IMG/VR virus record: IMGVR_UViG_3300029033_000047
Coordinates: 1-5,554 of that record
DNA from: a virus
Taxonomy: Duplodnaviria; Heunggongvirae; Uroviricota; Caudoviricetes
Length of the DNA: 5,554 nt
Direction: 5' to 3' (one strand)
Shown: in pieces, positions 4,862-5,554 of the stretch
How the letters are laid out: each line of letters begins with the position of its first letter
How positions within the stretch are numbered: the first letter of the stretch is position 1
The notes under the pieces: generated by a model
The model's input: only the letters and a program-made list of their open reading frames with translations
Databases searched by the model: none
What the model was told of the DNA's origin: nothing
Position numbers and translations under genes: made by a program

Positions 4862-4870
4862 AACCTGTTA

Positions 4871-4898
4871 CGGGAGGCGCACACCTCCCGTCCTCCTT
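4871..4898 (-). promoter_or_regulatory. RBS-associated hairpin between the capsid stop and the next start codon
   Basis: Minus-strand RNA reads UGA-GUCUGAU-AAGGAGGA-[CGGGAGG-UGUGCG-CCUCCCG]-UAACAGGUU-AUG. There is a perfect 7-bp stem (plus 4871..4877 paired with 4884..4890) with a 6-nt loop. The 3' arm CCUCCC is anti-SD-like and the 5' arm contains GGGAGG. A strong SD (AAGGAGGA, plus 4891..4898) sits immediately 5' of the stem. Confidence 0.45.
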
Positions 4899-4905
4899 AT
4901 CAGAC

Positions 4906-5554
4906 TCAGCCGCCGGACGCACTGCCGTAGTTCACTCCGGTGATCACCGCCACCGCCGCGGTACGGCGACGACGCCAGTTGATCCAGCGCTCCGCACGGA
5001 TGGCCACGCTGCCTGTCTGGAACATGGAAACCAGCTCCACCGGCGACGGCGTGGTACTGTCGCCGGTCGGCTCAGACTGCATTTCCAGTGATGCCTCGCG
5101 GGACATATCCACTGCCACGCCGCCGTCATCCGCCAGATAAATATCCGGGGCATTCACCAGCACCAGCTGGTCACCCACGTACTGGGAGACAATCACCGGC
5201 AGCCCCTGGAAGGAGCCACCCAGCAGGGTCATGTCCGGGTATTCTTTCTGACCCAGCGCATTTTTACGCATGGACAGTGCCAGGGCATTGGTGCTGGACA
5301 TCAGCCAGACCGCACCGGTGGGCTGCAGGTTTGCTGCCACAAACTGACCAAACGCGGTCTCTGCATCCGCATCCGGGTTACCGGTTGATGCCATGCCCTT
5401 CACATCATGGGTGATGGACGCCGGGGAGACATCTGCCACTGCGGCTTTTTTCGGGTCCACAAAGTCCGTGTCCAGACGCGCCACCACCGCTTCCGCCAGC
5501 GCATTACGGACCAGTGCATCAGCAGCCGGACTGGAAAAACGGATCAATTCTTCC
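4906..5554 (-). CDS. Major capsid protein, HK97 fold, C-terminal ~216 codons (5' end lies beyond the window)
   Basis: The frame is open to the window edge; the track's start at 5547 is a TTG inside the ORF, not the true start. The C-terminus ...GLPVIVSQ...VAVDMSREAS...LVSMFQTGSVAIRAERWINWRRRRTAAVAVITGVNYG has the same architecture as the HK97 gp5 C-terminus (...GLPVV...VEVSRED...ILCEERLALAHYRPTAIIKGTF). Stop TGA at 4908..4906. Confidence 0.8.
   Translation of the reverse strand, partial: EELIRFSSPAADALVRNALAEAVVARLDTDFVDPKKAAVADVSPASITHDVKGMASTGNPDADAETAFGQFVAANLQPTGAVWLMSSTNALALSMRKNALGQKEYPDMTLLGGSFQGLPVIVSQYVGDQLVLVNAPDIYLADDGGVAVDMSREASLEMQSEPTGDSTTPSPVELVSMFQTGSVAIRAERWINWRRRRTAAVAVITGVNYGSASGG

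Follow-up and report, generated by a model that had tools for sequence, protein, structure and literature searches.

The DNA analysed here (5,554 nucleotides (nt), positions 1 to 5,554 of the IMG/VR virus record IMGVR_UViG_3300029033_000047, in the following called the window) stems from a lambdoid prophage and covers a portion of its module for head and tail genes. On its minus strand, the major capsid gene is followed by a small open reading frame (ORF) of 73 amino acids (aa), and the spacer between the two contains a Shine-Dalgarno (SD) sequence that directly adjoins a stable hairpin. With moderate confidence, we interpret this hairpin as a conserved element, derived from a terminator, that would bridge the SD sequence and the AUG of the small ORF and would thus make up a split ribosome-binding site (RBS). 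The features on which this interpretation is built are the following:

4906..5554, minus strand: 3' part of a prohead-protease/major-capsid fusion gene with an HK97-type capsid domain, running off the window; PHROG 617 and PHROG 10 'major head protein'

4891..4898, minus strand: SD sequence AAGGAGGA with the core GGAGG at 4896-4892; predicted to be single-stranded, directly adjoining the hairpin

4870..4891, minus strand: hairpin with the 5' arm ACGGGAGGU (4891-4883), the loop GUGC (4882-4879) and the 3' arm GCCUCCCGU (4878-4870)

4862..4869, minus strand: single-stranded spacer AACAGGUU of 8 nt from the hairpin to the AUG, without a functional SD

4640..4861, minus strand: small ORF (73 aa) with its start codon AUG at 4861-4859; phrog_829, E = 3.6e-38

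3330..4694, minus strand: portal gene (454 aa); PF04860, E = 3e-80

Read on the minus strand, the junction is UGA GUC UGA UAA GGAGGA CGGGAGG UGUGCG CCUCCCG UAACAGGUU AUG. The first UGA (4908-4906) is the capsid stop codon, which is followed by two further in-frame stops (UGA 4902-4900 and UAA 4899-4897), and the spacer from the capsid stop to the AUG of the small ORF spans 4905-4862. The original prediction had described a spacer of 44 nt with AAGGAGGA at 4898-4891, a perfect stem of 7 base pairs (bp) and an AUG 9 nt past this stem, all of which match the minus strand. The 7-bp core consists of CGGGAGG (4890-4884) paired with CCUCCCG (4877-4871). According to RNAfold, the stem grows to 9 bp by A4891-U4870 at its base and U4883.G4878 at its top, giving a free energy of -16.8 kcal/mol and placing the AUG 8 nt beyond the stem. 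None of 200 dinucleotide shuffles of the 26-mer hairpin folded as well (z = -4.2), but the stability of the 91-nt context was unremarkable compared to shuffles (z = +0.35), and the folding signal is therefore local. In the predicted ensemble both arms of the stem are fully paired, and the upstream GGAGG is 93% unpaired (mean probability for the SD sequence 0.93); its duplex with the 3' end of 16S ribosomal RNA was calculated at -11.9 kcal/mol. When alternative pairings were compared, as had been proposed, pairing of the upstream SD with CCUCC reached only -6.5 kcal/mol.

In the linear sequence, the SD is separated from the AUG by 30 nt (G4892 to A4861). With the hairpin folded, 22 nt are looped out and the distance shrinks to 8 nt. 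The remaining spacer offers little else for a ribosome to bind to: its sole AGG is located 2 nt from the AUG and would pair with the anti-SD at -3.7 kcal/mol. For all seven other genes in the window, the best SD-like match ends 3-10 nt from the start codon, while the strong SD-like sequences of the small ORF end 20-30 nt upstream of its start. We also searched for the combination as a composite motif, defined as GGAG, up to 3 nt, a stem of at least 6 bp, 5-11 nt and the start codon of an ORF with 40 aa or more. Counting both strands, 0.06 such motifs are expected in a shuffled window; the motif was found here and at one site inside the portal gene. A search of the whole window with the covariance models of Rfam 15 gave no match at E <= 1. 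The hairpin was not called by a scan for intrinsic terminators; UAACAGGUU provides no U-tract after the stem.

To see how far this arrangement is conserved, we collected related junctions. Those from other genera were obtained by protein searches with the capsid C-terminus (capsid 69-84% identical) and the small protein, which are unbiased with respect to the junction. A scan of viral contigs with the small protein yielded only loci of the E. coli type, many of them on contigs already obtained in a first scan, and the counts given here therefore refer to distinct junction sequences, not to loci. There were 48 distinct compact junctions. Of these, 15 are of the E. coli type and come from phage records, IMG/VR and metagenomes; the remaining 33 were found in metagenomes and in genomes of other Enterobacterales (17 species). 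The other genera sampled include Pantoea, Erwinia, Citrobacter, Enterobacter, Kluyvera, Kosakonia, Buttiauxella, Atlantibacter, Phytobacter and Entomohabitans, and the metagenomes are from gut and soil. In all 48 junctions GGAG is found 0-3 nt ahead of a stem of 6-9 bp, and the AUG follows the stem after 6-11 nt (7-8 nt in 41 of them). An SD-like motif in the tail between stem and AUG was found in none of the 48. The linear distance between SD and AUG in the relatives is 24-32 nt, and the summed spacing with the hairpin folded is 6-9 nt in 44 of the 48 variants.

The stem is a perfect 9-bp helix in 13 of the 15 E. coli-type junctions; the other two, both singletons, have one internal mismatch. 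One subclass of this type has the sequence GGAGG GCGGGAGG CGCGAG CUUCCCGC AGUAACAG AUG. Here the basal A-U pair is replaced by G-C (G-U intermediates occur in other variants), one C to U exchange results in a G.U pair, and the tail differs and is devoid of any AGG, yet the AUG is still located 8 nt past the stem. Examples from other genera are AAGGAGG GCGGGG GAAA CCCCGC C AUAUUGC AUG and GGAGUA GCGGGGA GAAA UCCCCGC ACUUUUUCU AUG. The original prediction had pointed out that the 5' arm carries an SD-like GGGAGG and that the 3' arm with CCUCCC mimics an anti-SD. This is correct for the window, but not as a conserved trait, for the resemblance is limited to the E. coli clade and the other genera have GCGGGG/CCCCGC or GCGGGGA/UCCCCGC arms.

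An alignment of 29 distinct junctions was used to analyze covariation. GGAG is invariant in this alignment, and the two bases before it, the loop, the tail and the stretch from the stop codon to GGAG (0-22 nt, in length as well as content) vary freely. The six core pairs are not broken in any of the 29 sequences. Two of them switch from G-C to A-U: pair 11-32 is GC in 22, AU in 5 and GU in 2 sequences, and pair 16-27 is GC in 18 and AU in 11. Paired cells amount to 84.7%, compared to 49-56% in controls in which the partners were slid by 1-3 columns, and the covariation score was matched by none of 500 shuffles. RNAalifold proposed the same six core pairs unprompted. The conservation of the stem in relatives, on which the original prediction had depended, is thus borne out.

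Two metagenomic loci deviate from the common pattern. One (L184, contig Ga0058697_10000005, upstream of 1201) has an insertion of about 14 nt in the loop, which could form a second small stem; its basal stem, GGAG and 7-nt tail are unaltered. The other (L191, contig OAWT01000055.1, upstream of 74) is the sole homologue of the small ORF that lacks GGAG and an intact 5' arm. Upstream of GGGGAAACCCCGCC it bears no relation to the other junctions, suggesting that the prophage has been rearranged or truncated.

More distant relatives, from Serratia/Rouxiella and from alpha-proteobacteria and Marinobacter (capsid proteins 50-58% identical), show an arrangement that complements the compact one. They contain a hairpin of -14 to -23 kcal/mol located 7-25 nt past the capsid stop and 18-25 nt ahead of the next start codon; behind it there is often a U/C-rich run. 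A separate SD is present 4-8 nt before the next AUG in 9 of these 11 relatives, so that junctions with a longer distance from hairpin to AUG mostly have an SD of their own downstream. In Hydrocarboniphaga effusa (L102/L103) there are 3 nt from the capsid stop to the next AUG and no intergenic hairpin. A perfect 11-bp hairpin (GCUGACCGACC...GGUCGGUCAGC) is located about 45 nt inside its downstream ORF.

Features of terminators are also found among the closer relatives. At least five T in the 8 nt after the stem were counted in 12 of the 48 compact variants, two homologous hairpins, from Pantoea (L083) and Buttiauxella (L084), are scored as terminator-like, and loops of the GNRA and UUCG types, which are typical for terminator hairpins, are present in relatives. 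The window and all E. coli-type variants have three T at most in these 8 nt. The simplest history suggested by these sequences is that the hairpin descends from a terminator-like GC hairpin widespread after the capsid genes of this lineage, an ancestry that the original prediction had not noted. A terminator or stabilizer hairpin behind the capsid gene would be old in the lineage; in the enterobacterial clade, compaction of the spacer would have left the hairpin with the SD on its 5' side and the AUG close to its 3' end; the E. coli clade would then have acquired a longer stem and lost the U-run. The relatives do form such a series, from hairpin, U-run, SD and AUG through SD, hairpin, U-run and AUG to SD, longer hairpin without U-run and AUG. 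As the U-tract has disappeared in the window, termination is probably weak or absent there.

Folding of the hairpin would convert a non-functional distance between SD and AUG into an optimal one. Because the geometry matches that of genes 38 and 25 of phage T4 and the spacing drops from 30 to 8 nt, we infer that a 30S subunit bound at GGAGG 4896-4892 would reach the AUG at 4861. The original prediction had offered two ways of understanding the hairpin, and of these the comparative data favor the approximation of the upstream SD to the AUG: the unpaired GGAG is invariant, the stem is maintained by compensatory changes, the distance from stem to AUG is confined to a narrow range, there is no other SD, and relatives with a more distant hairpin mostly carry their own. 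In most other genera, the stop codon of the small ORF overlaps the AUG of the portal gene (UGAUG or UAAUG; loci L084-L100), which is a geometry of translational coupling, and the bridged site thus probably supplies the portal gene with ribosomes as well. This stop has been lost in the E. coli clade (GAAUG), where the last 55 nt of the small ORF overlap the portal gene (4640-4694 in the window). The net effect of the element would be to set the amount of the small-ORF protein and, via the small ORF, of portal protein relative to capsid protein. A T=7 head contains roughly 415 copies of the capsid protein and 12 copies of the portal protein. Since the capsid gene is located upstream of the portal gene, a steep drop in expression is needed at the junction between capsid gene and small ORF. 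The hairpin may in addition have a role in RNA stability, as had also been proposed; it may still shield the capsid message from 3' exonucleases, which is compatible with bridging.

Several points argue against a bridging function. Use of the upstream SD by ribosomes is a deduction from sequence. Ribosomes that terminate 44 nt upstream might reach the AUG by re-initiation or scanning, and a 9-bp hairpin between SD and AUG could sterically hinder the 30S subunit instead of helping it. Most of the covariation goes back to few evolutionary events (E. coli clade versus the rest, and the Pantoea/Erwinia clade), and four of the six core pairs are invariant in the alignment. The summed spacing is long (11-14 nt) in Pantoea/Erwinia and in one further locus (L099), and the Pantoea-type SD can pair weakly with the U-run. 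Finally, the hairpin is kept even where it is not located between SD and AUG, so bridging is neither its sole nor its original function.

A possible, though in our view not a likely, alternative is that the hairpin acts at the transcript level only. As a partial intrinsic terminator, a barrier to 3' exonucleases or both, it would keep the level of capsid mRNA above that of the downstream portal message. The GGAG next to it would then be a coincidence, and translation of the small ORF would either be weak, for want of a working SD, or depend on ribosomes that leave the capsid gene and re-initiate. This would account for the deep conservation of the hairpin, which even distant relatives retain after the capsid stop although their next gene has its own SD. 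The T-rich stretches behind the stem in a quarter of the close variants, the two terminator-like homologues, the terminator-type loops and the large drop in expression required at this position point in the same direction. However, the window and the E. coli-type variants fail the terminator scan, and still compensatory changes preserve their stem. Another argument against such a function is the antitermination of late transcription by Q in lambdoid phages, which lets it read through terminators. Moreover, the invariant unpaired GGAG, the fixed 7-8 nt from stem to AUG and the missing alternative SD would all be left unexplained. These three observations favor bridging of SD and AUG.

The other way of understanding the hairpin in the original prediction was an attenuator, in which CCUCCC hides GGGAGG and represses the next gene, possibly by switching with a pairing of the upstream SD. 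In the window, GGGAGG is indeed fully paired, its predicted duplex with the anti-SD is the strongest (-13.5 kcal/mol), and CCUCC could also pair with the upstream GGAGG. However, the paired GGGAGG is 22 nt away from the AUG, and hiding it therefore removes nothing functional; the conserved SD lies outside the stem and is largely unpaired. The sequence character of the arms is confined to the E. coli clade, and a G-rich arm with a single A resembles an SD by default. The best alternative pairings reach -6.5 to -8.4 kcal/mol, the one between upstream SD and CCUCC falling short of the main hairpin by about 10 kcal/mol, and nothing that could trigger a switch is apparent. We thus consider sequestration very unlikely. 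Even less probable is a functionless inverted repeat that arose by chance in GC-rich intergenic DNA. It would fit the unremarkable stability of the 91-nt context and the lack of an Rfam family, but is contradicted by the exceptional stability of the 26-mer and by the conservation of the stem, which different genera keep up through compensatory changes even though loop, tail and upstream spacer have diverged.

Three further candidates were discarded. An outer helix between the post-stop sequence GUCUGAU and the AUG region is weak, although part of the minimum free energy structure of the window; other E. coli-type variants and the other genera have it in a different form or not at all, and it is therefore not included in the element. 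A GUG at 4884-4882, 6 nt after the SD and in the capsid frame, would open an ORF of 79 aa that matches phrog_26251. It is present in the window and in a minority of the relatives only, and because the commonest relatives have GCG at this site, a GUG start is not conserved and was rejected. The translation is also rich in R, C and W, as in off-frame sequences, and the codon lies in the top of the stem. phrog_26251 is probably a family that stems from off-frame translation, i.e. a mis-annotation. Lastly, read-through or frameshifting of the capsid gene stimulated by the hairpin was excluded, as there are three in-frame stops (UGA, UGA, UAA) within 12 nt. The frame of the small ORF is closed by a UAA at 4870-4868, 9 nt upstream of AUG 4861, and the third frame is open for 27 codons without a slippery site.

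The closest known systems are the split RBSs of phage T4 (Nivinskas et al. 1999; Malys and Nivinskas 2009; reviewed in PMC3014915). In T4, a hairpin reduces the distance between SD and AUG from 22 to 5 nt in gene 38 and from 27 to 11 nt in gene 25; both cases are supported by mutations, reporter fusions and dimethyl sulfate probing, and destabilizing mutations lower translation (PMC3014915). The structure is conserved only among close T-even phages (PMC3014915). The junction described here shares with them an SD that is too far away in linear distance and is brought into the functional range of 5-11 nt by a hairpin, the location between cistrons of late structural genes, and an arrangement that is conserved in a clade and absent from more distant relatives. 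The looped-out segment is 16-17 nt in T4 and 18-22 nt here. The differences are an unrelated sequence and lineage (a temperate lambdoid prophage instead of a T-even phage), a longer and more GC-rich hairpin, its apparent origin from a post-capsid terminator, of which some relatives keep the U-run, and the downstream gene, which here is a small ORF with a stop that overlaps the portal start in most other genera. In contrast to the T4 elements with their mutational and probing data, the one described here is known from its sequence and predicted folding. Four traits of a split RBS are present, namely an SD more than about 15 nt away, a stable bridging hairpin, the lack of an alternative SD and compensatory conservation, the latter resting on few independent events. 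The junction is thus best filed as a computationally supported further example of a T4-type split RBS with a probable terminator ancestry; the kind of element is not new.

Other hairpins share some of these properties. In the filamentous phage f1, a terminator follows gene VIII, the highly expressed coat gene. Terminators or stabilizers of this kind resemble our hairpin in being GC-rich (6 of the 9 bp are G-C in the window) and in their location after the most highly expressed structural gene, where expression must fall, and relatives of the hairpin possess a U-run and score as terminator-like. Unlike them, the copy in the window has no U-tract, is part of a Q-antiterminated late operon and lies between an SD and a start codon. 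Hairpins that sequester an SD, such as RNA thermometers and those of T4 gene e and I-TevI, have in common with the one in the window that an SD-like GGGAGG is paired with an anti-SD mimic. Unlike in those, the paired sequence is not conserved here, and no conserved start lies within functional reach of it, whereas the conserved SD is unpaired and outside the stem. What one would expect of an attenuator, namely a functional SD within the stem and either a trigger or a second conformation close in energy, was not found.

Of 5,426 complete E. coli genomes, 1,244 contain the junction, in as many as 7 copies per genome, and Stx-converting prophages are among its carriers. We did not find a description of it in the literature; as the searchable literature is incomplete, this is weak evidence for novelty. 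The only cases of split RBSs that we found in this search were T4 genes 38 and 25, and natural, well-supported RBSs bridged by a hairpin are few. If our interpretation is true, the junction shows that a terminator can be taken over as an element of translation initiation, and how the ratio of capsid to portal expression is set where the capsid gene precedes the portal gene. There is also a practical aspect: software for gene calling or RBS prediction that measures the SD distance along the linear sequence will score the start of the small ORF wrongly, and with phrog_26251 a family in the wrong frame already exists.

The small ORF itself is well conserved in its first part. Its first 40 or so residues are kept across genera as M-x-x-[IV]-[RK]-Y-L-x-x-T-H-D...G...A..L, with Y6, L7, T10, H11, D12 and G16 invariant and the DNA differences synonymous. 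The E. coli clade has a version of 73 aa, whereas those of other genera are shorter (51-58 aa). There was no Pfam match for the small protein, and sequence searches led to a narrow family only, with 51 word-based hits, all of them from E. coli wherever the source names the organism, and 17 representative clusters. An AlphaFold model based on a shallow, E. coli-only alignment predicts a beta-beta-alpha-beta fold for the N-terminal 40 aa (pLDDT about 88) and a basic, disordered C-terminal tail. The predicted N-terminal fold can be superposed on the rRNA-binding N-terminal domain of ribosomal protein bL9 with a root-mean-square deviation (rmsd) of 0.8-1.5 A over 40 residues and an identity of 25-32%, at a Foldseek E-value of only about 0.15. 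YqbF, a prophage protein of B. subtilis, matches less well (rmsd 3.3 A over 52 columns, E 1.3). This tiny fold is common and recurs in many small uncharacterized phage proteins. It is conceivable, if improbable, that the hairpin doubles as an operator, in which case the basic small protein modeled here would bind the stem-loop and feed back on its own translation and that of the portal gene.

The module to which the window belongs is of the type seen in Stx-converting phages, and the full-length identity of the window to many records of Stx1a, Stx2a and Stx2c phages is 94-96%. All of its genes are encoded on the minus strand, in the order capsid fusion gene (3' part), 73-aa ORF, portal, 299-aa ORF, gp6-like connector, head completion protein, gp10-like, gp17-like and major tail protein. 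In full phage records, the small and large terminase subunits are encoded upstream of the capsid gene. Homologues of the capsid protein match PF05065, and in LC567834 and MT225100 the gene product is listed as a prohead protease / major capsid protein of 645 aa.

Two other regions of the window deserve mention. The 299-aa ORF (2434-3333, minus strand) follows the portal gene, with which it overlaps by ATGA, and PHROG 2271 (859 aa) spans both as a single protein. It contains repeated units of the type IP[VA]P(R/A)DG(R/K)... and has a weak match to CBM_5_12. Its length varies among relatives (738 nt in phage Lys8385Vzw), which suggests gain or loss of repeat units. The gap between the gp17-like gene and the major tail gene contains two terminator-like hairpins with T-runs on the minus strand, at 923-937 and 964-980. 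The second has the sequence CCCGCCGCGUGCGGG UUUUUUAUUA and is followed by AGGAGG and by the AUG at 900. This order of hairpin, U-run, SD and AUG before the highly expressed major tail gene is the classic one, and the reverse of that at the capsid junction.

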